A stretch of 64,000 nucleotides of DNA from a virus: positions 34,384 to 98,383 of the IMG/VR virus record IMGVR_UViG_3300049484_000177; one strand, written 5' to 3'. Positions 33,955-63,725 of the stretch are shown here, piece after piece. The stretch's first letter is position 1. The number at the start of each line of letters is the position of its first letter. Position numbers and translations under genes: made by a program. The notes under the pieces are model-generated. The model saw only the letters and a list, made by a program, of their open reading frames with translations, did not search any database and was not told the DNA's origin.

Positions 33955-33978
33955 GCGTCTTGTAGACACAGGACAAAG

Positions 33979-43874: not shown

Positions 43875-43886
43875 ACAACCCTCATT

Positions 43887-44381: not shown

Positions 44382-44383
44382 AT

Positions 44384-45666: not shown

Positions 45667-46199
45667 TGCACCACCAGTTCGAAACGAGGGGGGTAGTTTG
45701 GTTGAGCTAACATGAAGCGTATAGCTTGACTGGGAAACCTGCTCAAGTAGTAGCGCTTGCTCTCACCCGCCCATAAGGCAGACACTACTCTTCGGTTTAG
45801 TAACTTCGTGCAAAGCTCTTCATTCATCTCACCCTGTACGTAATAGGCGTCTAGGTAATGAAGAGCCTTGTTTGCAAACTGCATAGAGACCTCAGCCACT
45901 CTTCTATGGTCGGGGTGGCGAATGCCTAATGGAAAGACAAGTAGGTCTTCTGGCCCAGGTCTGATGCCCCAACTACCAAATGGTGGGATATTGTCCACCT
46001 CTAGCCAATCGCTGTCTGGAAAACCAAGAGAGGCATGATTGCAACCTACCGCTCTGGCATAGGAGGTAGCTTCTTTGGTGCGTTCTTCTACACCAGTAAC
46101 CGTGACTATGGTCTTGGGATGATTCTTCCACAACGTCGTTATGTGGGCATGAAGGGACATGAAGGCGTCATCGGGATGTGGTTCGATTATGTAGATCAT
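45663..46199 (-). CDS. PIG-L/LmbE-family de-N-acetylase
   Basis: PHPDD, R..EA, HPDH. Confidence 0.85.
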   Translation of the reverse strand: MIYIIEPHPDDAFMSLHAHITTLWKNHPKTIVTVTGVEERTKEATSYARAVGCNHASLGFPDSDWLEVDNIPPFGSWGIRPGPEDLLVFPLGIRHPDHRRVAEVSMQFANKALHYLDAYYVQGEMNEELCTKLLNRRVVSALWAGESKRYYLSRFPSQAIRFMLAQPNYPPRFELVVQ

Positions 46200-46906
46200 T
46201 CAAACACCTTAGCCCAACTCTCGGACATCCAGGTATTGTACTTCTTTACAAGCCCTAACCCTTCTGGATCTGTTATCTCCAAAAACGACCCACAGTATGA
46301 GCAGATCCGTTGCTTAACATACTCCACCCATTCAGGGTCTTGTATCTTAGCCAGATCCCAAGTTCTAGTCTCTGGACACTGCCAATGAGAAATCATACAG
46401 CCCATCGTACAGGGCGAGTACCCGAACACATCTACACCATAACCACAGATAGTTTCCCAACTACAAGTAGCCCTACGTACTTGTGGTAAATCTCTAGGGG
46501 CACAGAATATAAACTGCTCTCCCTGATTATCCGCATTACCTTCTATCTTGAATGAAGAGGATGTATACCAAACTCTTGTCCTTAGAGAGTATAGCAACCT
46601 CCTAGATGCTGCTGTGTATCCATTAGAATATGTCTTGATAAAGAATCCACGACGAATTGCCACTAAAGCAAACTCTTCAAACTGGGGATGCAGTGTAGGT
46701 TCTCCTCCCACAAATACCAACAGCTTCCTGAAATCCAAACGCTCGATATCATCCATGACTCTTACAAATGTTGCCATATCCATATCCGGGGGCTGATTCT
46801 TTTTATAAAAGCAGCCTGCATTACAGCATCTGCAAGACAGGTTGCATTTATAAGTCAACTTCAGCTCGGCATTACGAGTCTTTGGATCTAAGAAGTAGTA
46901 GCCCAC
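46196..46906 (-). CDS. radical SAM protein with Cys-rich C-terminus
   Basis: CNLSCRCC, GGEPTLHP, SNG, C-terminal CSYCG. Confidence 0.9.
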   Translation of the reverse strand: MGYYFLDPKTRNAELKLTYKCNLSCRCCNAGCFYKKNQPPDMDMATFVRVMDDIERLDFRKLLVFVGGEPTLHPQFEEFALVAIRRGFFIKTYSNGYTAASRRLLYSLRTRVWYTSSSFKIEGNADNQGEQFIFCAPRDLPQVRRATCSWETICGYGVDVFGYSPCTMGCMISHWQCPETRTWDLAKIQDPEWVEYVKQRICSYCGSFLEITDPEGLGLVKKYNTWMSESWAKVFE

Positions 46907-46916
46907 AGCACCATAC

Positions 46917-47639
46917 CTATGAAAAGATTACTTGCCATGTCTCTGTCATCTTCGTTCCATTGACATCCTTAATCTTAGACCGATCCACCTTCCCAAAGCA
47001 CACATCTAATGGAAGAAAGGACCCACAGTGTTTGCATAACTCCTGATACACAATATCCATATACAACGGGTCTACTAAGTCCTTCAGTTCATTAGCATAG
47101 GTAGCAGGAGCAGAGTAATGAGCTATCATCGTACCGATAGGACACGGTGAGAATCCCTGCTCATCCACACTATATCCCCAACTACCACTATCGTATCCCC
47201 ACTTACACGGTGAGCGAGTGACTCCCATATCCGCCGGGCTGCAGAAGATGTATGGGTTGTGAAAGCCAGCAACCGCTCCATTGAACTTATGAGTGCCTTC
47301 AGCCACTCTACCAAGATCCAACTCGCGAACCTTGACTATCGTATCCTTAGCCCGTTTACTGTAGGCATTGGACCATAACGTTTGCCTGAAATCCCGCTCA
47401 TGACTCAACTGCATAAACTTAACACATTGAGAATGAAGGGTAGGCTCACCGCCAATAAACACCAACTCCATACGAAACCCTAAACCCTCAATCTGATCCA
47501 ATACATCGAGGAATCTTTCCTCTGACATATCAGGCGGCAGATGCTTCTTGTTGAAGCAGGCTCGATTACATCCAGGGCAATCCAAGTCGCACTTGTAGGT
47601 AAGATGCAACTCCGCCTTGCGTATTCGTTGATCAAACAC
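46917..47639 (-). CDS. radical SAM protein (paralog of adjacent gene)
   Basis: CDLDCPGC, GGEPTLH, C-terminal CKHCG. Confidence 0.9.
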   Translation of the reverse strand: MFDQRIRKAELHLTYKCDLDCPGCNRACFNKKHLPPDMSEERFLDVLDQIEGLGFRMELVFIGGEPTLHSQCVKFMQLSHERDFRQTLWSNAYSKRAKDTIVKVRELDLGRVAEGTHKFNGAVAGFHNPYIFCSPADMGVTRSPCKWGYDSGSWGYSVDEQGFSPCPIGTMIAHYSAPATYANELKDLVDPLYMDIVYQELCKHCGSFLPLDVCFGKVDRSKIKDVNGTKMTETWQVIFS

Positions 47640-48240
47640 GGTCAGTCTCCTTCAGTAGGAATCCGCCCTTTTCAGAAATTATGATTGAATTGGCACTACG
47701 TCCATAAGTCCGCAAAGGGAGATTCGATCGCCAGTTCATTTCATCAAACCTGCTCAACGTTAGAACATTTATCCCTTCCGGTCTACCTAGCAGGTATTTC
47801 TGTAGAGGACCAACCTCTAGTCTACCTTGCTCCCAACCATAAGGTATTGTTATGAGAAAGTATTGAGACTCACCTTGTATCTTAAAGTAGGCATCCAATG
47901 GTGTTTTGCCCTCCAATGGTAAGCCATATCTACCATCATCTACATGCTCAATAGTAGAAATAGAAATGACAGCCTGCCCTCCGTAATTGACTGAGAATAA
48001 CGACGCCTTATCAGTAGCATGAGTGTCGATAGGATCTAAAATTCTATGAGACCATCCTCTGCTGAAATAAGGCAATACTGCACCAACTTCTATAATTGGT
48101 ATTCCAAGGCTGAGCATTAGACCATGCCAATACTCAGCGATGGGAACCTCGACCGCTCTTTCAGTAGTACCATTATTCTGATGGCGGTTGTATTTAAGCC
48201 AAACGCCGCCTTCTTCGTATTGAAACAACTCTTGGATCAT
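47632..48240 (-). CDS. methyltransferase-like protein (DUF268-like)
   Basis: ERAVEVP, IEVG, ISTIEHV, ITIPYG. Confidence 0.7.
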   Translation of the reverse strand: MIQELFQYEEGGVWLKYNRHQNNGTTERAVEVPIAEYWHGLMLSLGIPIIEVGAVLPYFSRGWSHRILDPIDTHATDKASLFSVNYGGQAVISISTIEHVDDGRYGLPLEGKTPLDAYFKIQGESQYFLITIPYGWEQGRLEVGPLQKYLLGRPEGINVLTLSRFDEMNWRSNLPLRTYGRSANSIIISEKGGFLLKETDRV

Positions 48241-49802
48241 ACTATACCTCTCCCTAACAAGACCTGACGTCCATTATCGTGAAGAACATCGAATCCCATA
48301 CGTAGGGCTTCTGGTATAGCAAGTTCTCCCTTACCTCTACCTACCCATCGTCCCGGCCAGAGATCACAATCATCCATGAGAACCAAACAACTGCCAGATA
48401 GAGGGGCCATCTTTAACGCTTTCAAATGAAACTCCGTCCCTCCCTTCTCCGCATCTGGCCCATCCAAATACAGGAGATCAATACTACCCTCAAACTCCCG
48501 TAGAAACTTGAACCCATCCCGACAGTGGTAGTGGACTCCGGTAGGTACTAACTTCTGAGCAGAGGCTATAGCCCTAGAATCATTGTCAATGCAATAGACC
48601 TCAAACCTTCCAGCCTGAGCCCAACGAACAGTAGACCATCCATCTGCATGTTCAGCAGCTGGTTTCAAATCACGTATAGCCCCTAATTCTACTATCACCT
48701 TCCCCCCAATTTTGTCCAAGGCTTGTATGGCCTCAGTAAACAAGAACTTGTCCCAACGCTCACGTCCTTTGAACGGAGGAGGAGCAACAGGTAGATTAGG
48801 AAGCGGAGACTCTGTTACTTGATTATCCTTCGCATCATAACTAGTCACCAACTCTACAAACGACTTAGCCCTATGAGACCAATCATTATCCTCTGCCCAC
48901 TCACGTCCTTGAAGACTGTGTTCCGATATATCCTTGCCCAACCAACTCTTGCATATGCTGACTAGATGCTCTGGGTCCGGCAAGTACCAATCCATTGGCC
49001 TTCGTACTTGTTGTTTTGTTACGACAGCTCGAATCCGATCCATAGCAGGATACTCCCGCCACGGTTCTCCATCAGTGCTGATGACAGGCATTCCACAGAC
49101 CATCGCCTCCATACATTCCAAACCTATACCATCAACGGAATGAGGGGCTATTAGAACATCACCCTGATTGTAGAGATCGTCATTGTCCTTGACCTTATCA
49201 AGAACTGGAATGCCCCAATCGGTAGCCGTCTGATCGTGTATTAGTAATGGCATCTCAGGCCATAACTCCAATGCCTTACGTATAACAGTGAATCCCTTTC
49301 TTCCCTTCCAGCCTCCATGACCATTGATGAACAAGAAGTGATCGCATGTTATGCGGGGGTCGAATTTGTACCTATTAACGTCGACAGGCCAGGAGAATGA
49401 AACTCGGGGTAGGTTGTCCCCCAGCTGATCATAGCACTGCTGGGTCGGGCAAATGAATAGATTAACTTGCTCCAACCAACCATGACTACCAAGCGAAGTC
49501 CATTCCAACATCGGCACACAAACTATTCTCTTTCCGTGAGTAACACAGAGATCAATGAGGTGGCTAAAGTGAGGGACCTCTGCAAACAGAACCACGTCTA
49601 CAGACTTGACGAAGTCCTCTACAGTAGAACCAGTTGCTTCACCAATAGTACACTCTACGTTCTCTGGTAGGCCACGCATCTCATACTTACTATGAGGTTT
49701 GATCAGCCAATGAGTAATGCCAGCATATTTAACCAACTGGCGATTCACCTCCCCTAAACCAGAGGCTACGTTACATCCAACGAGACCTATCTTTACAGAC
49801 AT
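48237..49802 (-). CDS. GT4-like glycosyltransferase fused to C-terminal methyltransferase
   Basis: RKG, DGIGLECMEAMVCGMPVI; IVELG, IDLLYLDG, LMDD. Confidence 0.85.
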   Translation of the reverse strand: MSVKIGLVGCNVASGLGEVNRQLVKYAGITHWLIKPHSKYEMRGLPENVECTIGEATGSTVEDFVKSVDVVLFAEVPHFSHLIDLCVTHGKRIVCVPMLEWTSLGSHGWLEQVNLFICPTQQCYDQLGDNLPRVSFSWPVDVNRYKFDPRITCDHFLFINGHGGWKGRKGFTVIRKALELWPEMPLLIHDQTATDWGIPVLDKVKDNDDLYNQGDVLIAPHSVDGIGLECMEAMVCGMPVISTDGEPWREYPAMDRIRAVVTKQQVRRPMDWYLPDPEHLVSICKSWLGKDISEHSLQGREWAEDNDWSHRAKSFVELVTSYDAKDNQVTESPLPNLPVAPPPFKGRERWDKFLFTEAIQALDKIGGKVIVELGAIRDLKPAAEHADGWSTVRWAQAGRFEVYCIDNDSRAIASAQKLVPTGVHYHCRDGFKFLREFEGSIDLLYLDGPDAEKGGTEFHLKALKMAPLSGSCLVLMDDCDLWPGRWVGRGKGELAIPEALRMGFDVLHDNGRQVLLGRGIV

Positions 49803-49816
49803 GCAATCGCTCCTGT

Positions 49817-50485
49817 CTACTTCTTCAGTAACTTCATGCAATCAAAGTCCTCGCCGCGGAACGAGCGAGGTAGTGGGTGTTGCAGATTCTCCATCATACT
49901 AACCTTCCCTGTATGCTGGATCAGCGTAGGTTGATGTACATACTCCCTAACATTCAACCTCCTGAAAGCACTAACGATACCACCATCAATACTCTTCCAT
50001 CCCCTATCGGACTGCATCCTATCAATCAAGTAGCGTTGTGACAATAGATTACGAAGTGTCTCTCCATCAAATATCAAAGCACAGGCCCCCTTACCTAACT
50101 GCTTAGCTAGAACCCAACCAGTTACCCCAGGTAGATCGTTAGTAGGTACTGTATAACAATTAAGATAGCCCCTAGCCGGATAGGAGCAACGCTCCAGGTA
50201 TTGCCGCAGGTTGCGGTAGACTACTATATCATCCTGAAACAAAGCATAGCGATCGGCCTTTGGGTAGCGGAGATTCAATTCACTAGCCGATAACCACCAA
50301 TTACCAAACGTCTTGATCCTCTCACCACGTAGAGTCTGTGCTAGAGAAGTATCAGGGTAGGGCTGACCGCCATCTATGAAGAGACGGGGCTTGTCAAATC
50401 CGCCGGCGGATAGACTAGCTATAGTCTTCGGTAGTAGATCACCAAACCGTTCGGGAACGGTTGTGATGCCGTAAGCCCACTCCAC
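49817..50485 (-). CDS. GT-A glycosyltransferase
   Basis: LFQDDI, SIDG, PTLIQHTG; TAGGAGCGA RBS. Confidence 0.75.
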   Translation of the reverse strand: MEWAYGITTVPERFGDLLPKTIASLSAGGFDKPRLFIDGGQPYPDTSLAQTLRGERIKTFGNWWLSASELNLRYPKADRYALFQDDIVVYRNLRQYLERCSYPARGYLNCYTVPTNDLPGVTGWVLAKQLGKGACALIFDGETLRNLLSQRYLIDRMQSDRGWKSIDGGIVSAFRRLNVREYVHQPTLIQHTGKVSMMENLQHPLPRSFRGEDFDCMKLLKK

Positions 50486-50505
50486 TTGTTCGCTCCTAAT
50501 GACTA

Positions 50506-51058
50506 CTAACTGATTCGTCTCATGACGAGTAGCTGTCCCCTATGAATTACCTCAACCCGACGATCATAAATAGAGAGGAAAGGGTCAATGCCCATAGCAG
50601 GTGTTTTGTATAGAGGCCACTCTTTATTGACAACCCACAAGTAGTCATCGAAGATTGTGATTCCACCTACCTTGAGCATCCAGAAACATAAGACAGCATC
50701 TACTATAACATCCTCTGCTTCATGAGATCCGTCGATATGGCAGAAATCAATCGTATCATCTTCTATCTCACGTAACCTATGTCTTGAAAACCCTTTCAGT
50801 TTCACTACCTTATAGGAGACTCCTGTATCGGCTATATTTCGATTGAAGCACTCCTCTCGTCCATGTCCTCCCTGCCAATGATCTATGCACCATAATTGAT
50901 TCTGGGTGTGTTAGGATATTCTCTAACCACCAGCAAGTAGATCCCCCTTCATGACACCCTATTTCAAGAGCAGTGATTTGCTTACCAACCAGATGCTTCA
51001 ATACCTCAGCCCATATCTTAGGCTTGTCTTTAACGAAGTCGTTATGGAACTCTCTCAT
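50506..51058 (-). pseudogene. frameshifted Methyltransf_24-like gene
   Basis: LEIGCHEGGS in one frame; LWCIDHW...HIDGSH...IFDDY in another; shift near 50896. Confidence 0.75.
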
Positions 51059-52212
51059 CGGAGCAGTTCCCAAGGCTTCGGCCGACCGAGCCAGTGGACC
51101 ACCTTAGCCCCCGGGTGACGTTCAATAGCCTCCCTAAGAAATACAGATGGGTCAGGAGATACCTTTCGACGTTGATTCAACTGATGCCTAGTAAGATTTT
51201 CCGCAGGGACATTCCATTCCGGAGAAAGTAACTTCAAATCCAGTCCGCCATTAAGATATTCGTCAATAAGACTGATTGCCATAGCCGACTGATCTCTAAC
51301 GTTGCATAACTCGACTTTCACCGGGTCTTCAATGACAAATGAACACACATCCCTCCATTTCATTATCAATGACTCCCCTCGTCTCCAACCAATAATACCC
51401 GTATTGATATCGAGTAACGTAGTCATAATATCTACGGCATGATGTTCACTTCCATACATATAGGAAACGATTGGATAATAGAGAGGCTTCCCCATATCAC
51501 CAAATAGTATTTGACTGGAAAGACAAAACTGATTCTCAGCCATCTCAAATAGAGGAGACAAATCACCCACAACTACAGCATCCGAATCTATCCATACTGA
51601 AGTATCAAATGGGGAGGCTAAACATACCCAGGGTTTCCACCAAGCGTTGATATGACTATGGATGATTGTCTCTCGTCTCGTCTTAGAAACTATAGGTTTA
51701 TCATGATACACCCAAACCACACCTACCCTATCCAATTCCATATGTTGCCAATATTCTAATCCATGATCTGCTACAGCTAAACCTACACCATTACTAACAG
51801 CCCCATATACTAAGGCCCCCAAACAACACCAATGATTGGATGACGCTCCAGTCACTACACCTCGTGACAAATCACTTGTTAGTATGTGATCCTCAAGAGA
51901 TAGCTTATACTGTACACTAGGCGAAGTGTTAGGTTTATATTCCCTCCACAAACCTAATGGACAATTACCTCCTAATATCAAAGCGTCTTCGTGCATACAC
52001 TCCTTCTCATGAAGACATGGATACTTATAACACGTAGAGCATACATTCTGCACAAATCTTCTAGCTGCCTCCCATCTACTACCAGGTTGTGTAGATGGGC
52101 AGTTACGATGAATATTGGAACTAGATAACGGGGGAGTAACAAACCCGCAATTACAGCAGGTGTAACGAATCCTCTTTCCTTTCTCGGCTGATGAGAAGAC
52201 GCAATCTGTCAT
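51055..52212 (-). CDS. GT8-like glycosyltransferase with Cys-rich N-terminal domain
   Basis: KPW...WIDSD, INTG, DQS, WN, HWLGRPKPW. Confidence 0.8.
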   Translation of the reverse strand: MTDCVFSSAEKGKRIRYTCCNCGFVTPPLSSSNIHRNCPSTQPGSRWEAARRFVQNVCSTCYKYPCLHEKECMHEDALILGGNCPLGLWREYKPNTSPSVQYKLSLEDHILTSDLSRGVVTGASSNHWCCLGALVYGAVSNGVGLAVADHGLEYWQHMELDRVGVVWVYHDKPIVSKTRRETIIHSHINAWWKPWVCLASPFDTSVWIDSDAVVVGDLSPLFEMAENQFCLSSQILFGDMGKPLYYPIVSYMYGSEHHAVDIMTTLLDINTGIIGWRRGESLIMKWRDVCSFVIEDPVKVELCNVRDQSAMAISLIDEYLNGGLDLKLLSPEWNVPAENLTRHQLNQRRKVSPDPSVFLREAIERHPGAKVVHWLGRPKPWELLR

Positions 52213-53978
52213 GGTGGAACTACAGAACTTAAATATATCGATGTAGGAACAGTACAAGGTGTCGTATCGTCGATCTTAGTCAACTCAATGTTTTCCAACG
52301 TCAGGCAATCATTCAAAACACCAGGAGAGACATAATAAGGTAGGAGACCCTGCCAGATAGCACGCCCTGGTGGTACGTCCTTATCGTAAAGATACAAGAG
52401 GAATCGAAGTTTGGATGAGGGGCCTGGAGGAGAGGGCGAATCGGATCTGTCAATGAATAATTGCCACCCAGCCTGAACCTCCCCTGGAAAATAGTAAATA
52501 GCACCACAAGGATAAGACGTAAGAAAGAAGTTCCCATTGTAACGAGGACAGTATTCACTATATGGAGGGGAAGAACCAGAAACTCCACTAACCTCAATTA
52601 GCCATTGATCAGGCATAAGCTGATCTTTGCAAACGTCACAGAATATAATACATACGCAATCATTGCATAGCTGTAATGAAACATCATTCTTTTGTTGCAT
52701 ATACAAAAACTGATGACAAAGACCTGTAGTACCTGCCCCTATATTCTCGATGGCTGCATAAGCCCCTCCTACAACAGGAGGCTTATAACTACGAACACAA
52801 ATATAATCACCCCTATCAACATAGGATTTCTGAATCCCAAAGGACACCCCTGTTGGATAGACACACAAACGAATTTCGTATTCGTCAGTAAGTGGGTATA
52901 TCCAATCAGCTGTTCTCTCCTCACCTCCGTTGTTATTAACTCGAATAGTAATAAGACCCCCTGCTTTGAATTCTACCTCTCCCCACGGTCCATTACCACC
53001 TAACGCAGCACAAGCATATATCCTTATCTTCTGTCCTATAGTATCTGCCTGAATTCGAGCTATTACAGTAGCGTATTCATACCCACTCCCCACTACATAA
53101 TAGCTATGTTGAATCAGGCAATCAGAGCGAAGATTGCCCGCCAGTTCCATATAACCCGATGCAAATACCCCAGCACTCCATTCACACTCTGGGGTATGAT
53201 CTGGCCATCCACCACGATAAGAACCATATCCAACTATCTCACAACGAGCTGGGCATTCAGGACATTTAACATCTGTATCATGATGAGCTTGAACCTGGAA
53301 ATTATCGAAGTCTGCTGATCCCCCTGAAGTTCCAGAGAGATGAACTCCAGTGAACCCAAAGAACGTCTCATCTATTTGTTCGCTAGTAGCATAGGTCAAT
53401 TGAAACGAAACTGGAGTAGGTCGGGAAGTTGCTGTAACTACTACACGAATAGTAGCCCCACCAGGATAAGGTGTATCACGAACACAAACAACCACATCAT
53501 GCCAAACCCCCGTTTGCAGCCCTAATACATTCTGCTCTAATAGAACCGTATCCCCTCCATTGTGTCTAACTAGTTTGAACGACCCACAATAATCCTCAGT
53601 ATCTGAACATGTTATCGAGAGATACCAGTAATCATCCACATCAATATAACCAAATACCACACCTGCTTCATCTCCATCGTATTCAACTCGTATACTACCA
53701 CTTAGTATCCAACTTCTACCAGGAGCATTCACTCCACTACCAGTTCCAATACCTACCCCAGTCTCCTCTGTACGAACTATAACTGATCCCGAATCATTGG
53801 TAGACAAATAGTAGTTACTAGGATCACTAGGACTAGTTCCCGTACCTGGGCCAGTGAACTCCTGCTTTATTACCCAATCACCAGCCTCTTGAAACCACGA
53901 CGATAAATCCCCACCAAACGAATCGGCGGCTATAACACAACAGCATCCACAACCCCCTGCATTATGCTTCTTCGGCAT
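52209..53978 (-). CDS. Cys-rich virion/tail-tip protein with lectin-like beta-sandwich
   Basis: GCGCCC start; AGVVFG...Y...WHDVVV...ADFDNFQV ConA-like pattern; position after tail genes. Confidence 0.65.
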   Translation of the reverse strand: MPKKHNAGGCGCCCVIAADSFGGDLSSWFQEAGDWVIKQEFTGPGTGTSPSDPSNYYLSTNDSGSVIVRTEETGVGIGTGSGVNAPGRSWILSGSIRVEYDGDEAGVVFGYIDVDDYWYLSITCSDTEDYCGSFKLVRHNGGDTVLLEQNVLGLQTGVWHDVVVCVRDTPYPGGATIRVVVTATSRPTPVSFQLTYATSEQIDETFFGFTGVHLSGTSGGSADFDNFQVQAHHDTDVKCPECPARCEIVGYGSYRGGWPDHTPECEWSAGVFASGYMELAGNLRSDCLIQHSYYVVGSGYEYATVIARIQADTIGQKIRIYACAALGGNGPWGEVEFKAGGLITIRVNNNGGEERTADWIYPLTDEYEIRLCVYPTGVSFGIQKSYVDRGDYICVRSYKPPVVGGAYAAIENIGAGTTGLCHQFLYMQQKNDVSLQLCNDCVCIIFCDVCKDQLMPDQWLIEVSGVSGSSPPYSEYCPRYNGNFFLTSYPCGAIYYFPGEVQAGWQLFIDRSDSPSPPGPSSKLRFLLYLYDKDVPPGRAIWQGLLPYYVSPGVLNDCLTLENIELTKIDDTTPCTVPTSIYLSSVVPP

Positions 53979-54358
53979 TAGCAGTCCTCCCAATCAACGA
54001 ATAGCTTATTACTAAGCGTTTCTCGTTTGCATTGGATATAACTGCTTCCTGCGACCGAAGACCTGCTCAGATTATAAACTGTCTCCTCATAATCTGTGTC
54101 ATCCCAATTCAACCTAGCAGTCAGTTCATCATCATCGTTTAGATAGTATAGAACACAGTCTGCCGAACCCGGTAGAAGTCCAATTCTAGCCGGTATTCCT
54201 CCTGCGGGTGTATAAGCAAGGTAGACAGATGTCTCCACTGCCCCCATAATCATCTCTTCGTCCGGGAACTTTCGCCCCTGTTCCCGCTTACGCTCCCGAT
54301 CAATGAGAGCACGAAACAGAACGGCATCTTCCGGCGACAAGGCAAAGAGATCAGCCAC
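53978..54358 (-). CDS. putative tail protein
   Basis: Operon position; TPAGGIPAR. Confidence 0.6.
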   Translation of the reverse strand: MADLFALSPEDAVLFRALIDRERKREQGRKFPDEEMIMGAVETSVYLAYTPAGGIPARIGLLPGSADCVLYYLNDDDELTARLNWDDTDYEETVYNLSRSSVAGSSYIQCKRETLSNKLFVDWEDC

Positions 54359-54360
54359 AA

Positions 54361-54843
54361 TTACCTCGGGAAGACAGTTATGCGGCAGAGGGCTTCACCA
54401 TGCTGACAACGTATAGAAAGCAAAGCCGCTTTAGCCGGACGAAGGATTGAGATTAGACCAGGTGAGCAAAGCTCGCACTCGTCACTATTCTGTGTATAGG
54501 ACAGTTCCAATACCTTCCGATCTATCTCATCCAACTCTTCCTTGGATGGATTAGTGACCGGAGATTTGCCCTCTAGGTTCTCTACTGTAATCGTACCTAC
54601 CTTATTGGACTCTACCCATCCAGTATCAACTGTCTTCCACATCACACCCACACGAATGCGACGGGTGTAGGGTTCTTCCTTCTCCTTGAGAATCTGGCTG
54701 CAAATGACCTGCACACCAAACGGTTGATCACCTCTGTGTTCGTGGTATATGTTCACCACTGTAGTTAGGCGATCTGGAGTTTCCTTTGCTGGATCAAGAG
54801 GAGCGACATTTACTCCAAGCAGCGGACTAGTTATCTGGCTCAT
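54361..54843 (-). CDS. putative virion protein
   Basis: Operon position; beta-rich. Confidence 0.6.
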   Translation of the reverse strand: MSQITSPLLGVNVAPLDPAKETPDRLTTVVNIYHEHRGDQPFGVQVICSQILKEKEEPYTRRIRVGVMWKTVDTGWVESNKVGTITVENLEGKSPVTNPSKEELDEIDRKVLELSYTQNSDECELCSPGLISILRPAKAALLSIRCQHGEALCRITVFPR

Positions 54844-55256
54844 GCGTCGAACGCCTCCACTATTACATAACAAGCGGCAGTGTCTGATCTAACACGTAGT
54901 TTGTTGACTACCCCAACAGTCCCAGTTCCAGCCCCATACTCAAACCTCAAGTTACGAGACAAACGAAGGATGTAGGCTTCCCCTGGCAGAACCTCACCCA
55001 ATGGATCGAAGTTAGCACCATCCCAAATGCCATACTCAATGAAGTTAGTAACATCCAAATTCATAATACGGCAGAGGGCGGGTAACATTAGTTCGCTGAA
55101 GTCCACGTCAGTGCCCGTTACCGATGCCGTAAATGCTCCTGGTACAGGCCCCTTGCCTATGGCCACATCCGCCCGGAAGTCGTTAGGATTGCTACGGTAG
55201 TTGAGGTTATCCTTGAGGATATTCAATTCAGAACGGAAGGTGGCTTCGTCACTCAT
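54840..55256 (-). CDS. putative virion protein with GAGTGT loop
   Basis: Operon position; beta-rich. Confidence 0.65.
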   Translation of the reverse strand: MSDEATFRSELNILKDNLNYRSNPNDFRADVAIGKGPVPGAFTASVTGTDVDFSELMLPALCRIMNLDVTNFIEYGIWDGANFDPLGEVLPGEAYILRLSRNLRFEYGAGTGTVGVVNKLRVRSDTAACYVIVEAFDA

Positions 55257-55268
55257 TTGTGTTTCGCC

Positions 55269-56201
55269 TTATAACCAGGTGGGTATGCCCAGTGTCAAGA
55301 AGTTGTACTCACCATACAACTCGATTGCTGCATGAAAGACTGGATTGGTAGGATCGGTAAGCGGGTCACCATTAGCTGTTAGCAAAATTCGAGTAGGAGT
55401 AGGTCGTTGACTCCATTCTTCTTTATACCAATCGAAATTCGTAGGATCTGCAGCACTAAGCGCTGAAGGCACCCAAACGTGAGTGACATTATTCCAAGTT
55501 CCCTTACGACATTTGTATCCTACCTGGGCCACTTCCTTCTCATCAAACCCATCAAACCTAACCTCAAACTCGAGGGTGCGAGTGTAGTAGTAATTGCAAG
55601 TACCATATACATTCCTTCTCCATGTAATGTTCGTCAGCATGACCTTACGCTTAGTCAAACCCCATAGATTACCATCATTCAACTTGTTGATAGCACCGGA
55701 GAGTGAATCTAACTGGAGAGCCGGGGTGTTCTGCTCGATAGTAACAGTAGGACGTACATCCTTCTTCTCTATCCCCTTAATACGTTCATGACTACTACTA
55801 AGAATCAGCTTCCCGAGACGATCCTTCTCAGCCTCCTTAGTATAGACAGCAAACGTCCCACTCACTTTTTGAGGCTCTGACAACGGATTACCTACCTGCG
55901 AGTCCTGACAACGTCTGATAGGTTTGGTACTGAAAGTCTGTTCCGTTGTCCAGTATACATTAGGCTCCTTCGACACTACAGGATTGATAGACAAGCTAGG
56001 GAGACAGAAAGCCCACGGGTCCGAATCATTACCAAACTGCCACGGAGCACCTACGGTAGGCAAGCCATAAGCAATAGATACAATAGCCGGACCATCACTA
56101 GGACTAGTAGTCTGAACCAAGCATTTCAACTTATACTCACGATGACCGTCCGAGTCCGTCGAACGGGACCAGTCTGTTCTTCCTAATACTACAGCCGACA
56201 T
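55269..56201 (-). CDS. putative distal tail / hub protein
   Basis: Immediately downstream of tape measure. Confidence 0.6.
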   Translation of the reverse strand: MSAVVLGRTDWSRSTDSDGHREYKLKCLVQTTSPSDGPAIVSIAYGLPTVGAPWQFGNDSDPWAFCLPSLSINPVVSKEPNVYWTTEQTFSTKPIRRCQDSQVGNPLSEPQKVSGTFAVYTKEAEKDRLGKLILSSSHERIKGIEKKDVRPTVTIEQNTPALQLDSLSGAINKLNDGNLWGLTKRKVMLTNITWRRNVYGTCNYYYTRTLEFEVRFDGFDEKEVAQVGYKCRKGTWNNVTHVWVPSALSAADPTNFDWYKEEWSQRPTPTRILLTANGDPLTDPTNPVFHAAIELYGEYNFLTLGIPTWL

Positions 56202-56202
56202 A

Positions 56203-58887
56203 TCATGAGACTCCTAACGGACTGATGGTAATAGGAGGCACTCTTGACTGAGCCTCTACTGCTATTGCTATACGTTCAAGCAGTTGCTTAAACAGATCAT
56301 CAGTAGGTGGCTTGCCTCCACCAATCCCAGCTATACGAGGAGCATCAGCTATGGGAGCCCCTATACCTGCAGGCCCTCCAATTGCTGGTGCTATTACAGG
56401 AGGTGCTCCGGGAATGCCAGGAACAGGCATTCCCGCGGTGATATTTCTCATAGCCACATCAGCCAATAACTGATTGAACTCTTTTGTACCCTTGCGAACT
56501 GCTTCAAAGTCCCCTACCCCAAACTGGACTTCTACAAATGCTCTTGATTGAGCCTCTACCAACTCTTTATTCAAATCAACCAAAGCTCTCTGGTATAATT
56601 GCTGTCCCTTAACACCTTGACTTAGTAATGGCTGTAAATCATTTAACCCCTTATTAAACTTCTCCTGCGGAGTCATGTACTTCTCTGTCATATCTTTCAA
56701 CAACTTCATCCCGGTGGCCTGATCCATCAACTTCTTAGCAGAGTCTAACTGAGCAGCTCCAGCCCCCCGTAAGGATAGCTCATATAACTTGACCTCATCG
56801 GACGTCATACCAAATGTAGCTACTTGCTTCGCCAGTTCCTCGGTGAGTTTAGCTGTGTCCTTAACAACTTCAAGATTCCTCTTCTCCTCCATCTTATCTG
56901 CCATATCCATCAAATCCGCTAAATTAGCCCCTCGCTTATTAAGCCCTTCCAACTTCACTTCATCAGCTATAGTAGAAGCATCCGCTCCAGCCTCAATCAA
57001 CTCTGTCTCTACCTTCAATGCATCTATACTCTCTTGTAGACTATCAATAAACGATTTGGAATCGCTACTGAGCTTTTCTATCGCATCTGCCTTAGCCTTC
57101 GCTGCTTTGGCAGACGCTTCTAATACCGCCACCTCTTCTTGCAGGGATTCTACTAACACCCGTTGAGACTCTAGCATACCATCCGTTATCAATTTGCTAA
57201 GAACAGACTCATCATTAACCGCCTTCAGTTTATCCCTCTTTTCAGTAAGGGATTCTATGTAACTCGTTGCCTCTACCTCCCCCTTACTCATTGCAGCTTT
57301 GGAATCGGCTAACGGTCCCAATTCCTTACGCAAGGTAGCCAATGTATCTTTACTAGCCTTGAGCTTACCTTCAAGACTTTGCACTTCCTCCACCTGTCCC
57401 CGATAAACAAACTTACCAGCTTGCCATAACGATAAGACCGACGGGGCAAGTTCCTTTGCCCTATCCCTAGCATTAGTAAGAGTTTTCTCCATGCCCTTTT
57501 GATTCAATAAAAGAGCGTCATACTCCTTCTTCAAATAAGTGGTACGATCTACACCAGACAACTTAGCAGCGTTCTCCATAACAGACTGCAGATGCTCATT
57601 GTTGATCTTATCTAATTCCTCATTGATAGTACGAGCCTGATCCACCGTGACTTGTTCCGCTTCTATCTCTTTGCGTTCGTTAGTAGGCACAAGAGATCCA
57701 GCTTTATACCCTACATAAGCCGCTCCTGCTACAGCTCCCGCTACTCCCAAGGCCCTAGCAACCGCTTGAGCTTTAGACAACTTAGCAACCGATGAAGCTA
57801 AACCTAACGAGGCTAACGAAGCCGAGTTAGCCGTAGTAGAATAATAAACATTAGCCGCTGAAGCCGCGAGAGTAGAACCTGTCAAAGCTGTATAAGCAAC
57901 CCACAATTTACTAACTATAGCAATACCACCAGCCGCCATCGTGAAGACCGCTCCCAATACAGTAACAAGTCCTACAATAGTGCCTATAAGAGTCTTGTCA
58001 ACAGAAGACAAGCTACTAAACCACTCTACCAACTTAATGAACTGTTCAACTATCAATTTAGCAACAGGCAGGATACTCTCAGCCATCTCCCGACCAAGAA
58101 TACGCCAGGCGTCCTTGAGGGTGGACATCAAACCAAGATATGACTTAGATTGCTTCTCCATCAAATTGAAGAAGCGTCCTCCTTCACTAGATAACTCCTT
58201 AAATATATCCCGCACATCCGAGAAGGTGATTTTGCCTTCACTAAGCATCTGCTGAGCACCAGCTATGTTAGTCTTATAATGCTTGGCGAGATCCTCCAAT
58301 GATAGAATGCCCCTAGTAGACAACTGGCGGAAATCCTGGGTTAGTAATTTACCTACACCACGAATCTGATTGAAGATTAAAGCAACCATACCAAACTGAG
58401 AACTAGTACCTGAAGCAGCATTTCCTAATATTTTGAGCGTGTCCATCAACTCCTCTCCACGCTCACCAAACTGGACGAGACCTCTTGCTGCTTGTTCTAT
58501 CTCAGGCATTTCAAAGGGTGTCTTAGCAGCAAACTCCGTCAAACTGTTAAGCAATGCTGTTGTCTCTGAAGCACTACCTAGCATAGTTTCAAATGCAATG
58601 GTAGTCTGTTCAAACTTACCAGCCGCCTGTAGAGCTTCATTCCCCATCATCCCAAACACAGCCGTCAAAGCCCCTCCTACGACAGCGGCTGTTGTGCTTA
58701 GACTAGACAGACTATCCGCAAAACTTCTGGTTATAGCCGTACTCTGAGCCGTGAACTGCTTGGTCTGATTCTGAATGGCATTGGAAGCTGAAGCAGTCTG
58801 TTTGATAGCCTGATCCAACGTCTTCTGATAGTCCGATCCGTCTCCCATCAGACGAATGACCATCCTACCAAGTTCTGTCTCGTCCAT
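56203..58887 (-). CDS. tail tape measure protein
   Basis: FETMLGS...FAAKTPF tape-measure domain; long Ala-rich helices. Confidence 0.93.
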   Translation of the reverse strand: MDETELGRMVIRLMGDGSDYQKTLDQAIKQTASASNAIQNQTKQFTAQSTAITRSFADSLSSLSTTAAVVGGALTAVFGMMGNEALQAAGKFEQTTIAFETMLGSASETTALLNSLTEFAAKTPFEMPEIEQAARGLVQFGERGEELMDTLKILGNAASGTSSQFGMVALIFNQIRGVGKLLTQDFRQLSTRGILSLEDLAKHYKTNIAGAQQMLSEGKITFSDVRDIFKELSSEGGRFFNLMEKQSKSYLGLMSTLKDAWRILGREMAESILPVAKLIVEQFIKLVEWFSSLSSVDKTLIGTIVGLVTVLGAVFTMAAGGIAIVSKLWVAYTALTGSTLAASAANVYYSTTANSASLASLGLASSVAKLSKAQAVARALGVAGAVAGAAYVGYKAGSLVPTNERKEIEAEQVTVDQARTINEELDKINNEHLQSVMENAAKLSGVDRTTYLKKEYDALLLNQKGMEKTLTNARDRAKELAPSVLSLWQAGKFVYRGQVEEVQSLEGKLKASKDTLATLRKELGPLADSKAAMSKGEVEATSYIESLTEKRDKLKAVNDESVLSKLITDGMLESQRVLVESLQEEVAVLEASAKAAKAKADAIEKLSSDSKSFIDSLQESIDALKVETELIEAGADASTIADEVKLEGLNKRGANLADLMDMADKMEEKRNLEVVKDTAKLTEELAKQVATFGMTSDEVKLYELSLRGAGAAQLDSAKKLMDQATGMKLLKDMTEKYMTPQEKFNKGLNDLQPLLSQGVKGQQLYQRALVDLNKELVEAQSRAFVEVQFGVGDFEAVRKGTKEFNQLLADVAMRNITAGMPVPGIPGAPPVIAPAIGGPAGIGAPIADAPRIAGIGGGKPPTDDLFKQLLERIAIAVEAQSRVPPITISPLGVS

Positions 58888-58889
58888 AA

Positions 58890-59228
58890 CTACTTCTTCC
58901 CTAGTATAGCACCCCAAAAGGACTTAGAGTGTGCTACCATCCGCTCCTTGACCGATTGAGGTACAGCTACTAACTTCTTGAACAAGAACGGAATCTTGAA
59001 CATACCAACCTTCACCTGCCCCGGATTCTTATGCAGAACGCAATGAACCTCCCTAGCCACCTGCATCATGTAGTAGTCACTACGGCTAGGTTCATTCCAT
59101 TGCTTCTTCAACCATTCCATCCAAACTAGATACTGACGGTTGGATGTCTTCTCTTGACAGTCGTCAAGGGACATACCTAAGTAACCGGCTAAGGTGAGCC
59201 AGCCGTCGTATCTTTCTGCAAGTTTTTT
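58890..59228 (-). CDS. tail assembly chaperone frameshift extension (gpT-like)
   Basis: -1 frame open from the slippery site: KLAERYDGWLTLAGYLGMSLDD... Confidence 0.8.
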   Translation of the reverse strand, partial: KKLAERYDGWLTLAGYLGMSLDDCQEKTSNRQYLVWMEWLKKQWNEPSRSDYYMMQVAREVHCVLHKNPGQVKVGMFKIPFLFKKLVAVPQSVKERMVAHSKSFWGAILGKK

Positions 59229-59740
59229 GCTTTTTCCTCAGCCGTGGGCTCCAGCCACTTCTTCAGTGCTTCGTAATCATCTCCGAGGGTGTCCACAAAC
59301 TCCTTCAGATCAGACAAAGGCAATGGAGACACCGGACTTGATAGAGCCTTGCCTAGAAGTTCTCTCTCACTAGCCTCCTCCTGAAGCATTGAGACTTCTT
59401 TGATCTTGGCGAAGAGTGTTTTCTGAATGCGGCTGGGCCAGCTTTCGATGGTGGCCTGTGTCACGAGCTTGTCCGCCTTCAACTCACCATTACCATCTGA
59501 CTTGGTAGTATAAAGGCAGTGAGATACAAGAAGAGGCTCGACACTAGCCATACCCCGCAGAGAAGTCGGTTTACCATCCGGGCCCAACGTCATCGAGGCA
59601 AGCAGAGCATTGCGATAGATAGTAGCCGCCTTGCCACTAGCCTCCTTGAGAATGTAGGACTTACCCTGCACCATAACAGGGAGTTCTACTGGAGTCAGAG
59701 TATCAAAGTTCAGATCATCTTGTTGGATTTGGTCTTTCAC
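59189..59740 (-). CDS. tail assembly chaperone (gpG-like)
   Basis: Between tail tube and tape measure; EEKAKN at slippery site. Confidence 0.85.
   Translation of the reverse strand: MKDQIQQDDLNFDTLTPVELPVMVQGKSYILKEASGKAATIYRNALLASMTLGPDGKPTSLRGMASVEPLLVSHCLYTTKSDGNGELKADKLVTQATIESWPSRIQKTLFAKIKEVSMLQEEASERELLGKALSSPVSPLPLSDLKEFVDTLGDDYEALKKWLEPTAEEKAKNLQKDTTAGSP
59222..59228 (-). other. programmed -1 ribosomal frameshift site A AAA AAC
   Basis: X XXY YYZ heptamer in frame; joins the two chaperone ORFs. Confidence 0.85.
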
Positions 59741-59824
59741 TGGTCGCTCCTAAGCAGACATCGAAAATTGGCCCTCCCCGCCCGTCCGCTAAAGACAGGG
59801 AGGGCCTTGCAAGCCACAGGCAGA

Positions 59825-60289
59825 CTACGTGCCGCTGCCAGTAGCCGAATACTCAGCGAGAGTCTCCACTCCCGCTAACTGATTTGTAGCCACAATCGTT
59901 ATGGCTGCTTCCGGTTGGTTGCCTTCCTGCATTTCGTTGGGCTCGAAGGACTTCAGGTATCCAACGAAATTCCAACAGCTTCCATCCGAGAAGTGAACCG
60001 AGATCCACCCATTGACGTTGATCAGGGCGATTATCTGATCCAGCACCTGAGGATCATAGGCCACAGTGAGTTGGGCATCTGTCAACGTCTTCAGAACCCG
60101 CGGACCTCTTGTCCGGTAGGTAGTGTTGAACATGGTGGTAGTTTCCACCGCGTCTCCACCATCTACCCCAGGAGGCTTCACCGACTTCTCCCAGAACGAA
60201 ACGTCGGAGTCAGCTGCAAAGGCTATCTTTGCAGGAAATCCTTCGTCCAGTTTGGTCCCAGCAGGGGCCGAGCGAGTCGTAGCAGTCAT
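59825..60289 (-). CDS. major tail tube protein
   Basis: PPGVDGGDAVETT...YDP...F.GYLKSFEP; ends ATGSGT. Confidence 0.85.
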   Translation of the reverse strand: MTATTRSAPAGTKLDEGFPAKIAFAADSDVSFWEKSVKPPGVDGGDAVETTTMFNTTYRTRGPRVLKTLTDAQLTVAYDPQVLDQIIALINVNGWISVHFSDGSCWNFVGYLKSFEPNEMQEGNQPEAAITIVATNQLAGVETLAEYSATGSGT

Positions 60290-60313
60290 GTTCAAATCTC
60301 CTTTCTGAGATTG

Positions 60314-60775
60314 TTATGTTCCAGTACCCGGAACTGTCATAGTCAAACTCATCAACGCATTTACTGTCCATAATTTCCTACGGCTTGAGCCATGTTCATA
60401 ACCCAACGAAAGGACACCTGATGTACGAGTAATAGCATTCACAGTATAGATAGCAGACCCAACTTCAACCGATGTCCTATTAACTGTCTTATCCAATCCC
60501 TGAGATATATTCATGGCCTTAGTGAACCCATTTTCACCATTAGAACGCACACGAATCTGAGTGCCGTAATGCTCTGCCATCTCCCCTTGAACGTGCTCTC
60601 TACCCCCTAACTTACTCTCGGTTGAGTAGACACAAACGGAATTGTCTGGAGTATCAGGATGGTTACCACTATAACAAGGCCAACTCCCTCCTGCACTGAT
60701 ATCGGTTACGTAACCTAAGTCAATGAGAAGTTGCTGAAGAACGTCAGCCGGTGAATGATCTAGGTCACCACTCAC
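60314..60775 (-). CDS. tail terminator protein
   Basis: PDTPDNSVCVY, QIRVRS; ends PGTGT. Confidence 0.8.
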   Translation of the reverse strand: MSGDLDHSPADVLQQLLIDLGYVTDISAGGSWPCYSGNHPDTPDNSVCVYSTESKLGGREHVQGEMAEHYGTQIRVRSNGENGFTKAMNISQGLDKTVNRTSVEVGSAIYTVNAITRTSGVLSLGYEHGSSRRKLWTVNALMSLTMTVPGTGT

Positions 60776-61281
60776 TACTTACGTCTCCTCTTACCAGATA
60801 CCTTCAATCCAGCCTTCCTAAGTGTCTCTACATCCTTACTCATTTGCTTAGTAGAACCTTCCCCTTTAGATAAGCGTCGTAGGGCCTGTGAACGGGCGAA
60901 TGCTGCTTTGGATTCTGTATCAACATCCTTCTCCAATGCCGTGAAGGCACTAGCCCTAAGAGCCGATGTATCAACAGGTACTATCATCTGACTCTCTCGT
61001 TGCAACCGAAGCCCAGCCATTAGAAGTGACTGAGCTATCGACCGTGTCTTCAAATAGACCTTTTGAACAATAGCCGCCAGTTCATGACGTAATCTACGGG
61101 CTGGGTCTTCTAGGTATTTAGCCTGCTTGCCCGGAGCATGCCTAGCATTGAGATCCTCATGAACATAGAGAGCATATTTCTGGGTATACCCTACCACTAC
61201 AGATTGATTCCCTTCAGCAGCGCTCTTCTTTAGTGCTGCTAGTTTCTGCATCACCTGATTTACACCTTCGATCTGAGCCAT
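60775..61281 (-). CDS. HK97 gp10-like neck / tail-completion protein
   Basis: YALYVHE, QAKYLE, VPVDTSALRAS. Confidence 0.8.
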   Translation of the reverse strand: MAQIEGVNQVMQKLAALKKSAAEGNQSVVVGYTQKYALYVHEDLNARHAPGKQAKYLEDPARRLRHELAAIVQKVYLKTRSIAQSLLMAGLRLQRESQMIVPVDTSALRASAFTALEKDVDTESKAAFARSQALRRLSKGEGSTKQMSKDVETLRKAGLKVSGKRRRK

Positions 61282-63725
61282 TAGGTATCCGATCCTACTA
61301 TACTGTCAATATCATAGGTAGCTGTATCCGGGATGAATGTTGCCCAAGGACTACGCTTACCCGTCCCCCTCCTCCACTCATAACCAGCATTTCTCCAGAG
61401 AGTAAGAGCTACTTGTCCATTAGCATCACTAACCTTAGTTTTTATCGTGCCATCCAATGAGCTGTTTATACTCCCAGAAGCAGGAGTAACCTGTCGATAT
61501 TGAATAGTAACCCCAGCCTCCAAAGTAGTGCTCTCGTTATAACAATAGATCGTTACATTGGACTTGGTTGCAACTGGTTCTGTTGGAACAGGAATGATAG
61601 TCATTGAGTAGGTAGCCGTCTCATTCCCATCCACAACCATTGTAGTCCCCGAATAGGTATAGTTGGCCAAAGTAATAGCTACTACCCAAGAACCGTCGTT
61701 TACGTTAAACGTAACATGACCCAACACATCAGTAGTCTGAAGGTAGGACTCATTGGCTTTAGTCATCCTTACTAATGCTCCCTCCAAGACTGTCGATCCG
61801 TCATTAACCGTAATAGTAACAGTGCGGGCACCAGTACCAGCAGAAGGACTAGCCGCCGTATCGAGAATTGTATCTAAACGTCCTCCATTAGCCCAGTCAG
61901 TTTGCAATTCGTTAGTATCCGCCAAAATAGCAGCAACCTCCGTGTCGAGGTAGCCAGCAACAGTGGCTAGATTTGTCGCCGTCGCCACGCCATAATCCAA
62001 CAATGACGCATCTACCTGGGTATTGATGTTCGCCAGTGATGTGGCGTCATTCGTCAGTGTCGTACCAGTGGCCGTATTCACAACGGTTCCGCACACGCCG
62101 GAGATGGTTACAATAGCCGAACCAGCTCCCGTACCGGCCACCGTGATTGGCCCCAGCACTCCGCGCAGTAGCACACTCGCCCCCGCGGCTACCGTGACGT
62201 TGATGCCCTCAAACGTACCTTGATATCTTGCAGCGCAACCGCCAGTGACGAGCGTTTGAACGGTAGCTGACACGACCTCCATGATGAGTGTTACGTTACT
62301 GTCGGCCGTAATTGTCGTTCCGCCGCTCCACCGCGAGAACCTCGCCGTCGTTGGTGCACCTGTTCCGACGAAGTTAAATACCGCCGCAACACCAGCCGTC
62401 GCCATTGCTCGGCAATCGACGAAATCATACTCACCAGCCGATCCGGTAGTGAATGTGCCGGACAAGTGTCCAAGTCCACAACTTATAAATTTGGATGGAC
62501 CCAATGTAACGGCACCAATGTCACAATCGAAAAACGTCGGATGTGTAGCACCCGTACCCGTTCCAATAACCGTTGCACCTTCGATATACGTTCCGCTGTA
62601 CGATTGTCCGTTGAGTGCGAGGTTCCAATTCTTACCGATGATCGACTTTCCATTAAATGCTGCAATCGGAGTGATGGTCTCTCCGTTCTGGATTCTAAAT
62701 CGCGTCAAACCCAACGCGGCAGCAATCACCAGGGCATCTGCAAACGGGCACGGGTTATCCGCCGTACCGTTAATGTAAGTGGTAGTTCCCGCTGTGCCAG
62801 AGGCTTTCACCCAAACAGCACCGTCAACATAGCCGACCGTGCGATTGGTAATCGTCTTGCCGACGAGAAGCTGGTCGATATTAAGTGTGGCATTTGACAG
62901 TGCGGCTAAGGGAGCTTCGTTAATGACTTGGATTCGCACCTTGCCGGCATTTACACCCGTTCCCGTATAGGTGGCTGTCAGTTCGGGCACAGAGACGGAA
63001 TTGGTGCTTCCGTTGGTCCCCGCTAATGTGTAAAAGTTCTTCCACTGCCCTCCACCAGTCACCCAATCCCAAACATTGACATGGACCGAATCGTTGGATG
63101 AGTTGATATAGCCCTTGAAGATGAATCCTGTGGCTTGCTCATCGCCAGCGAGCGTAAAATCAAAGATGAGGGAAATTCCACCGAGACCCGTTCCTGTCCA
63201 TGTCATGTAGTTTCCGGTTGCTGCAACAAGGTCGGCCAACACACCACCCGTTAGCACCCCAGCCGTCAGTGTGTACGTGGCGGGCGATGAATAAGACGGA
63301 GAGCCCGTAATGGCAATGTTGGAGACTTGACCACGGATGATATCCACCTCAGCGTCGATGTCGTCCTGTAATCCCTCCACCGATGCCGTGGTTCCGTTCC
63401 ACCAGACTCGCATCGACTTGAGCAGCGTATCGGAGATGGCAGGCGTAGCTCCCACTCGCTTGTAGATGTCGATGTCGTACCAGCCAACCGTAGTTAACGT
63501 CGCTGGCCAAGTGCCAACATAGAAGTACGATGAAGCGGGAGTCTCTGTCAACGCAATCCAGTAGTTTCCGTCCGTCGCTGCCGCGTTGTACCAGTTCAGT
63601 ACGGTCAGCGACTCAAACGCTGGCAGGTCCGTGTCCGTGTTCCACATCTGCCGAGATGAGTTGCGGATAGTCACGTACAAAACCTCACCCGTGGCACTGT
63701 GCCGGTAGCTCAACTCGCTGGCCAT
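61281..63725 (-). CDS. large Gly/Thr-rich virion protein (beta-helix plus C-terminal Ig/transthyretin-like domains)
   Basis: NGTADNPC, beta-helix-like repeats, TTDVLGHVTF, SDANGQV. Confidence 0.7.
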   Translation of the reverse strand: MASELSYRHSATGEVLYVTIRNSSRQMWNTDTDLPAFESLTVLNWYNAAATDGNYWIALTETPASSYFYVGTWPATLTTVGWYDIDIYKRVGATPAISDTLLKSMRVWWNGTTASVEGLQDDIDAEVDIIRGQVSNIAITGSPSYSSPATYTLTAGVLTGGVLADLVAATGNYMTWTGTGLGGISLIFDFTLAGDEQATGFIFKGYINSSNDSVHVNVWDWVTGGGQWKNFYTLAGTNGSTNSVSVPELTATYTGTGVNAGKVRIQVINEAPLAALSNATLNIDQLLVGKTITNRTVGYVDGAVWVKASGTAGTTTYINGTADNPCPFADALVIAAALGLTRFRIQNGETITPIAAFNGKSIIGKNWNLALNGQSYSGTYIEGATVIGTGTGATHPTFFDCDIGAVTLGPSKFISCGLGHLSGTFTTGSAGEYDFVDCRAMATAGVAAVFNFVGTGAPTTARFSRWSGGTTITADSNVTLIMEVVSATVQTLVTGGCAARYQGTFEGINVTVAAGASVLLRGVLGPITVAGTGAGSAIVTISGVCGTVVNTATGTTLTNDATSLANINTQVDASLLDYGVATATNLATVAGYLDTEVAAILADTNELQTDWANGGRLDTILDTAASPSAGTGARTVTITVNDGSTVLEGALVRMTKANESYLQTTDVLGHVTFNVNDGSWVVAITLANYTYSGTTMVVDGNETATYSMTIIPVPTEPVATKSNVTIYCYNESTTLEAGVTIQYRQVTPASGSINSSLDGTIKTKVSDANGQVALTLWRNAGYEWRRGTGKRSPWATFIPDTATYDIDSIVGSDT

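Follow-up and report, generated by a model that had tools for sequence, protein, structure and literature searches.

Gly-Thr tags on tail proteins of an uncultured siphovirus lineage are candidate acceptors of O-linked glycans

The 64,000 nucleotides analysed here (the window: positions 34,384 to 98,383 of IMG/VR record IMGVR_UViG_3300049484_000177) are the final 64 kb of a 98,383-bp virus contig, and they encode several tail proteins that carry short Gly-Thr units, followed by a cluster of genes for sugar building. The two ends of the contig overlap by 127 bases, and the genome is therefore circular. Its late genes form a minus-strand block that runs from the contig start across the circular junction and on through the window from position 64000 to 42000. 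Within the window the order is a Gly/Thr-rich protein of 814 amino acids (aa), a 168-aa protein, the tail terminator, the tail tube, two chaperone-like open reading frames (ORFs), the tape measure (56203-58917), proteins of 310, 138, 170 and 126 aa, a Cys-rich 594-aa protein and the sugar cluster; the capsid gene lies outside the window, at L001:7661-8884. In what follows, GT stands for the dipeptide Gly-Thr, and names such as GT1 or GT-A refer to glycosyltransferases. The features of main concern are:

61281..63725, minus strand: 814-aa Gly/Thr/Ala-rich virion protein, with IGTGTG (62550-62564)
60314..60775, minus strand: tail terminator, with a C-terminal extension VPGTGT before the stop codon (tag codons 60317-60328)
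59825..60295, minus strand: tail tube, ending SATGSGT before the stop codon (tag codons 59828-59839, GSGT)
54840..55256, minus strand: 138-aa jelly-roll protein of the tail module, with a loop EYGAGTGTVG (GAGTGT at 54918-54935)
52209..53993, minus strand: Cys-rich 594-aa tail-tip protein, with GPGTGTS (53835-53846) and GIGTGSG (53736-53747)
41956..52257, minus strand: sugar-building cluster of 13 genes, recognized by Pfam scans, directly downstream of the tail-tip genes
49817..50485, minus strand: 222-aa GT-A-like protein with an invariant DD motif and no Pfam match, the candidate reader of the tags

Every one of these motifs lies where the initial annotation of the sequence had placed it.

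The tail tube was assigned from its predicted fold and its gene position. Its AlphaFold2 (AF2) model matches the tube domain of lambda gpV with a template modelling (TM) score of 0.63, Foldseek gives TM scores of 0.60-0.63 to 7t2e, 8k36 and 9mfe, and the gene stands ahead of the chaperone pair and the tape measure, as in the lambda gpV type; no match to the protein was found among 50,697 phage records. Where the tube domain stops, lambda gpV runs on into extra C-terminal sequence. In the model of the tube studied here, the last six residues have a low per-residue confidence (pLDDT). Homologues were collected from a search (73) and from 80 syntenic loci in IMG/VR scans, and 120 distinct tubes were scored. 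A GT within the last six residues is present in 82 of these 120, either as the exact end (57) or followed by one to four residues, mostly as GTD (25), and the remaining tubes have GS-type tails (10), an N-x-S/T near the end (7) or other ends (21). Beyond the conserved core the tail is otherwise variable, and the GT end state has changed at least 19 times on a tube tree built without the tail. That the share of GT ends stays as high as 68% in a fast-changing tail despite these changes, against about 4% by chance (our estimate), indicates selection on this ending. Being the majority state of a large family, the GT end is best read as an old, ancestral trait and not as a recent graft in this phage. 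Extension of the tube by frameshift or read-through, in the style of SPP1 gp17.1*, was also considered and rejected, with no open frame longer than about 30 codons after the stop.

The terminator gene lies directly upstream of the tube gene. Its product scores below threshold with PF12691 (Phage_tail_terminator_6; 21.8 bits for a cut-off of 23.8, E 2e-4), and two of its homologues carry precomputed PF12691 assignments. The tag extends past the usual end of the family, ..LRQT[ST]. Only 6 of 52 distinct terminators in the lineage run past this point, and all six extensions are rich in Gly and Thr (VPGTGT, GTGSSS, ETGTAS, ETGTAD and SVGTGS among them). A profile search of 1.84 billion representatives returned 3,599 relatives of the terminator, and the best 150 of these 3,599, which are diverged, were scored. 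Short C-terminal extensions are found in 15 of these 150, in single-domain forms, and all are of the type (GT)n with n = 2-5, for example QPGTGTGTGTGS, SEPGTGTGTGTG, GSIGTGSGTGS, EEGTGT and DVGTGT. Longer terminators are fusions to whole domains that begin at the same point as the tags, which suggests that the terminator end is able to carry added mass. Terminators with extra domains use no GT linkers, so that the idea of (GT)n as the remnant linker of a lost domain is unsupported. On the best terminator tree the tag state changes 9 times, compared to 15.2 times with shuffled labels, and 13 of the 16 tagged rows fall into one loose group; the terminator tag may have had a single origin.

In the 138-aa protein the Gly-Thr units are internal. 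The AF2 model is a beta-sandwich in which the loop 105-114 has a pLDDT below 50, and fold searches gave generic jelly-roll matches only (Foldseek E > 1e-3; VIA best Z 8.8 at a root-mean-square deviation of 10). Among 22 aligned homologues (41-62% identity), the best conserved stretch of the family is this loop, E-Y/F-G-TGTGT-T; it is TGTGT-like in 20 of the 22, and in one it is missing as a whole. The loop was also scored in 120 further homologues. In 117 of them it holds two GT units, spaced by 0-6 residues, as G[TS]G[TS] in 99 cases and with a gap of 1-6 residues in 18 (e.g. GTGAGT, GTDPTEGT); the other three have a single unit. A near-invariant pair with variable spacing in a flexible loop makes these units look like sites that something reads, and not like a fixed turn.

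Two further tail proteins have comparable motifs. No homologues of the 594-aa tail-tip protein were found among the loci; in relatives, about 20 distinct versions of the protein whose gene follows the 170-aa one were compared, and four of them have a (GT)n end (DTGTGTAS, GTGTGSDETGTG, ITGTGT and GTGTAAAGTGTA). The 814-aa protein contains GTG eight times against 1.4 expected, and its IGTGTG site reads [IV][SI]GT[GS]TG in four of five homologues and SGT-TG in the fifth.

Counted within this genome, G[TS]G[TS] occurs six times in the tail block (3,884 residues) against 0.96 expected from composition, and four times in the rest of the genome against 2.7 expected. GTGT is the most over-represented word of the form XYXY in the tail block (4 vs 0.33 expected, p = 4e-4 uncorrected), an excess that would not survive correction for 380 candidate words. 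The enrichment in structural proteins proposed in the initial annotation is thus, as far as this genome alone is concerned, suggestive only. The accompanying impression that the motif is missing from replication proteins needs a correction: GSGT/GSGS is present in two plus-strand enzymes, as the S-adenosylmethionine (SAM)-binding loop of N6_N4 DNA methylases, and the motif is not confined to structural proteins. Codon usage of the tag differs from copy to copy, which rules out a DNA repeat as its origin.

GTGT is found in two head proteins as well. One, with 164 aa, is encoded between the protease and the capsid (L001:8953-9447, minus strand) and has seven GT dipeptides against about 0.9 expected by our estimate; five of the seven are conserved in relatives, and a GTTGT is inserted in this genome alone. 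These sites look like ordinary fold elements. The other, a 1,482-aa protein (L001:11214-15662, minus strand), contains an ART-PolyVal ADP-ribosyltransferase (ART) and a MuF domain as well as an Acb1-like 2H phosphoesterase, and its YHGTGT falls where the match to the ART domain begins. Polyvalent MuF-type proteins are thought to be packaged for injection, and from its domains this one looks like a packaged polyvalent effector. The major capsid protein ends HCTTA. The end H-G/A-T-T-A/S is found in about two thirds of 66 distinct sequences of its family (L001:7661-8884 and loci L145-L224), and is kept in the clade that lacks the 222-aa enzyme, also in complete genomes where no sugar enzyme was detected. 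The capsid end was therefore ruled out as part of a tag system. The nearest cultured relative by capsid, Brevundimonas phage MaInes (32%), has a capsid ending AHYS, other tail genes and no tags.

The sugar cluster encodes a GT8-like protein, a 534-aa fusion of GT1 and Methyltransf_24 domains, further Methyltransf_24 proteins, two radical SAM proteins, a PIG-L deacetylase and two Glyco_trans_1_2 proteins. Sugar genes follow the tail genes in every close relative; radical SAM genes are rare among relatives, and the cluster here exceeds in size those of the relatives examined. With a profile of the 222-aa family, each of the 11 close genomes gives exactly one match, located after the tail genes and in some cases fused to the GT1 protein; the family is also present in 17 of 26 wider relatives picked by capsid similarity. 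In 11 of these 17 (within G026-G047) the six-frame match to the family crosses one to four stops, mostly TGA. These stops are probably gene boundaries, at places where the N-terminal extension of the profile reaches upstream; they may also reflect recoding.

Four relatives lack the 222-aa family (G025, G044 and G049, which are complete, and G045, which is 94% complete), and tags are absent from all four, which form one clade. They keep homologues of the tube and of the terminator, with tubes ending VYSAAP, VYSP, VYAA and DYQEAA and terminators ending LKEI, LKET, KKIES and QEEVT. No homologue of the 138-aa protein was found in these four genomes, nor any match to PF00534, PF13524 or PF13578 (GT1, Glyco_trans_1_2 and Methyltransf_24, respectively). 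A test set beforehand, namely that tags should be missing where the cluster is missing, was thus borne out. Counting only genomes in which both states are known, the tube has a GT end in 11 of 14 genomes with the enzyme and in none of 4 without it (one-sided Fisher p of about 0.011 by our arithmetic, which ignores phylogeny).

Taken together, the Gly-Thr units of this phage and of hundreds of its relatives, members of a large uncultured lineage, are best described as portable tags that are under selection and sit on flexible stretches of unrelated tail proteins, because unrelated folds carry them, their copy number and spacing vary, and their flanks drift. The proposal that such a tag has been grafted onto unrelated folds stands as regards the folds, with low model confidence at the sites that were modelled; it does not stand for the tube, whose GT end appears ancestral. 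On balance, we regard it as probable that the tags are acceptors for O-glycosylation at Thr. What was observed is that the motifs are present and conserved, that they lie in low-confidence tails and loops, and that they occur together with the 222-aa family; modification of the Thr, the nature of this modification as a glycan and the identity of the initiating enzyme are inferred from these observations. Sugars would be accepted by Gly-Thr units, single or as (GT)2-5, in flexible regions of tail proteins, some or all of which face outward: at the C-termini of the tube and the terminator, in the loop of the 138-aa protein and, probably, in the tail-tip and 814-aa proteins. The first sugar would be added to the Thr hydroxyl late in infection by a cytoplasmic glycosyltransferase of the phage, most likely the 222-aa GT-A-like protein, which is found across the lineage and whose gene comes just after the tail genes. 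GT1/GT4-type transferases, Methyltransf_24 O-methyltransferases, the PIG-L deacetylase and the radical SAM enzymes, as a variable set, would then extend and tailor the glycan, and the assembled tail would bear a sugar coat.

Virion glycosylation has to our knowledge been shown by experiment only in mycobacteriophages, whose virion glycans shield the particles from antibodies. In 2023, Freeman et al. reportedly described virion O-glycosylation in mycobacteriophages Che8, Corndog and Myrna. In both Che8 and Corndog the last residue of the capsid and tail proteins is Ser, preceded by Gly in three of the four (Che8 major capsid protein TGS and major tail protein gp11 DGS; Corndog gp41 VGS and gp49 GDS), a parallel to the Gly-Thr of the tags; the corresponding ends in L5 and Bxb1 are EA, EG, VG and VV. 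According to statements in PMC12619734 and PMC12363180, the sugars of mycobacteriophages are placed on the C-termini of capsid and tail tube by transferases that the phages themselves encode, and L5 and Bxb1 are not among the phages that these statements list as glycosylated. The arrangement described here resembles the mycobacteriophage one in several respects. The phage encodes the glycosyltransferases (here with GT1, Glyco_trans_1_2 and GT8-like domains at 41956-52257), cytoplasmic enzymes act on virion proteins (as they would here) with the tail tube as a target, and a hydroxy residue stands at the extreme C-terminus, usually after Gly (here as GSGT or GTGT). A Methyltransf_24 domain is also joined to a glycosyltransferase in both (GT2 with Methyltransf_24/TylF in Che8 gp108, GT1 with Methyltransf_24 in the 534-aa protein here), and Corndog gp35 resembles a 167-aa methyltransferase of this genome with an E of 1e-4. 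In contrast to the mycobacteriophage case, the acceptor residue would be Thr and not Ser, the tag is repeated as (GT)n and used inside loops too, and the targets would include the terminator, the jelly-roll accessory protein and the tail-tip protein. Moreover, the capsid end is independent of the enzyme, the enzymes lack BLAST or phmmer similarity apart from the one methyltransferase, and the putative system has a much larger cluster (13 genes) at the end of the tail operon.

A second parallel is offered by TfpO/PilO of Pseudomonas aeruginosa 1244, a periplasmic oligosaccharyltransferase that takes an O-antigen unit from a lipid carrier and glycosylates pilin with it at a C-terminal Ser. There, too, the acceptor is the last residue, and a short, transferable C-terminal tag is said to suffice. 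That reaction is periplasmic, whereas the cluster described here holds soluble enzymes of GT-A and GT-B type; phage tails assemble in the cytoplasm. A literature search for a Gly-Thr sequon in phages found no relevant description.

Several observations weigh against glycosylation of the tags. The genomes without the enzyme belong to a single clade, and therefore represent a single evolutionary contrast and not four; within this clade, a GT2-type gene is present in G045, at a distance of about 11 kb past the tube gene. The GC-rich genome G005, in which transferases were detected by six-frame searches, has the 222-aa family and other transferases, yet neither a tube nor a terminator tag, and no 138-aa protein; G001 and G014 also have the enzyme but a tube without a GT end. 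Across 858 de-duplicated ORFs of tail modules, the strict pattern G[TS]G[TS] was counted 9 times within the final 8 residues where 4.4 are expected, an enrichment of only about 2-fold (p = 0.036), and the majority of GT dipeptides in these protein families lack conservation. A GT1-type transferase of one relative itself ends LVGTGT (G002:C1:8886-9935; L010:18866-19915), which could be due to chance, to self-modification or to a virion-associated enzyme. As for the enzymes of the mycobacteriophages, the essential transferases Che8 gp110 and Corndog gp38 match PF01755 (GT25), and a search of this genome with PF01755 gave no match. The profile of the 222-aa family aligned weakly, but better than controls, with that of the gp110 family by hhalign (probability 14-32%, E 5e-4 to 2e-3; controls 0.2-0.4), with the DD motif and a PSLxxH motif in register; these values do not establish that the 222-aa family and the GT25 enzymes of the mycobacteriophages are homologous.

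The main rival explanation, which we consider rather unlikely, is that the Gly-Thr units serve structure or assembly, for instance as turns, as tails by which one tube ring docks to the next, or as contact sites of the 138-aa protein. They would then be co-inherited with the cluster only as traits of a single clade, and the cluster would modify something else such as the host envelope. It can draw on the frequency of Gly and Thr in turns, on the 164-aa head protein, in which several of the conserved GT sites have the look of ordinary fold elements, on the capsid end HGTTA conserved without enzymes, on G005, and on the reduction of the co-occurrence to one contrast. A docking motif would be expected to have a fixed length and register, however, whereas the copies found range from one to five and their spacing from 0 to 6 residues. 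The same dipeptide, moreover, stands on four unrelated folds, in low-confidence segments where these were modelled, and the tolerance of whole domains at the terminator end argues against a buried contact there.

It appears improbable that the Thr of the tag receives another modification (phosphate, nucleotide, ADP-ribose or methyl), or that the tag is a signal for an assembly chaperone. The MuF protein does have an ADP-ribosyltransferase domain, methyltransferase domains are numerous in the genome, and two radical SAM proteins are encoded as well; what the evidence shows is a tag that is read out, and not which chemistry it undergoes. The sole gene family that tracks the tags across genomes, however, is GT-A-like with a DD motif; Methyltransf_24 is fused to a glycosyltransferase in Che8 gp108 as well; the ART domain belongs to a head protein of a class generally thought to be packaged; and the radical SAM genes have the sparse distribution noted above. 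Far less probable still is that the motifs are chance low-complexity matches chosen after the fact. The excess within this genome does fail correction for the words that could have been chosen, and the pooled C-terminal enrichment is just about 2-fold, but conservation in 120 tubes, 142 proteins of the 138-aa family and 150 terminator representatives is far above the chance level of about 4% that we estimated.

The genome, with its 98 kb, exceeds its complete relatives (60-77 kb) by about 30 kb. A scan of genome contigs gave matches in just three contigs of metagenome-assembled genomes, from unrelated phyla, so that no host is indicated; that it is bacterial is suggested by the family A DNA polymerase and by the Shine-Dalgarno site that precedes the tube gene. 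On the plus strand (window 10574-12805 and 14836-16224), a 743-aa protein has uracil-DNA glycosylase-superfamily and 3'-5' exonuclease domains with an intein/Hint module interrupting them, and a separate family A polymerase domain comes after it. The early region of the same strand encodes a MoxR-type AAA+ ATPase (bpMoxR) followed by a VWA-domain protein (window 33931-36779), and a 553-aa protein with the catalytic core of a eukaryotic-type topoisomerase IB is encoded in the late-strand block (L001:18100-19761, minus strand).

We tentatively propose, as a possibility that goes beyond glycosylation of the tags as such, that a minimal, portable Gly-Thr sequon and the small 222-aa enzyme constitute a self-contained cytoplasmic O-glycosylation system with a freely exchangeable tailoring cluster. 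A very large lineage of uncultured siphoviruses from soils, sediments and wetlands would use it to coat their tails with sugar, and its origin would be independent of the Gly-Ser system of mycobacteriophages. If the tags are indeed acceptors, sugar-coated tails would be common among environmental phages, and would follow a rule simple enough to be recognized in sequence data: one small enzyme family, and Gly-Thr units at flexible ends or in flexible loops. Annotation could then predict which virion proteins are glycosylated, and the short tag and its enzyme would make a pair for tests in protein glycoengineering. It would also raise the question of what role a glycan on tube, terminator and tail tip may play in adsorption, in stability and in escape from host defences.

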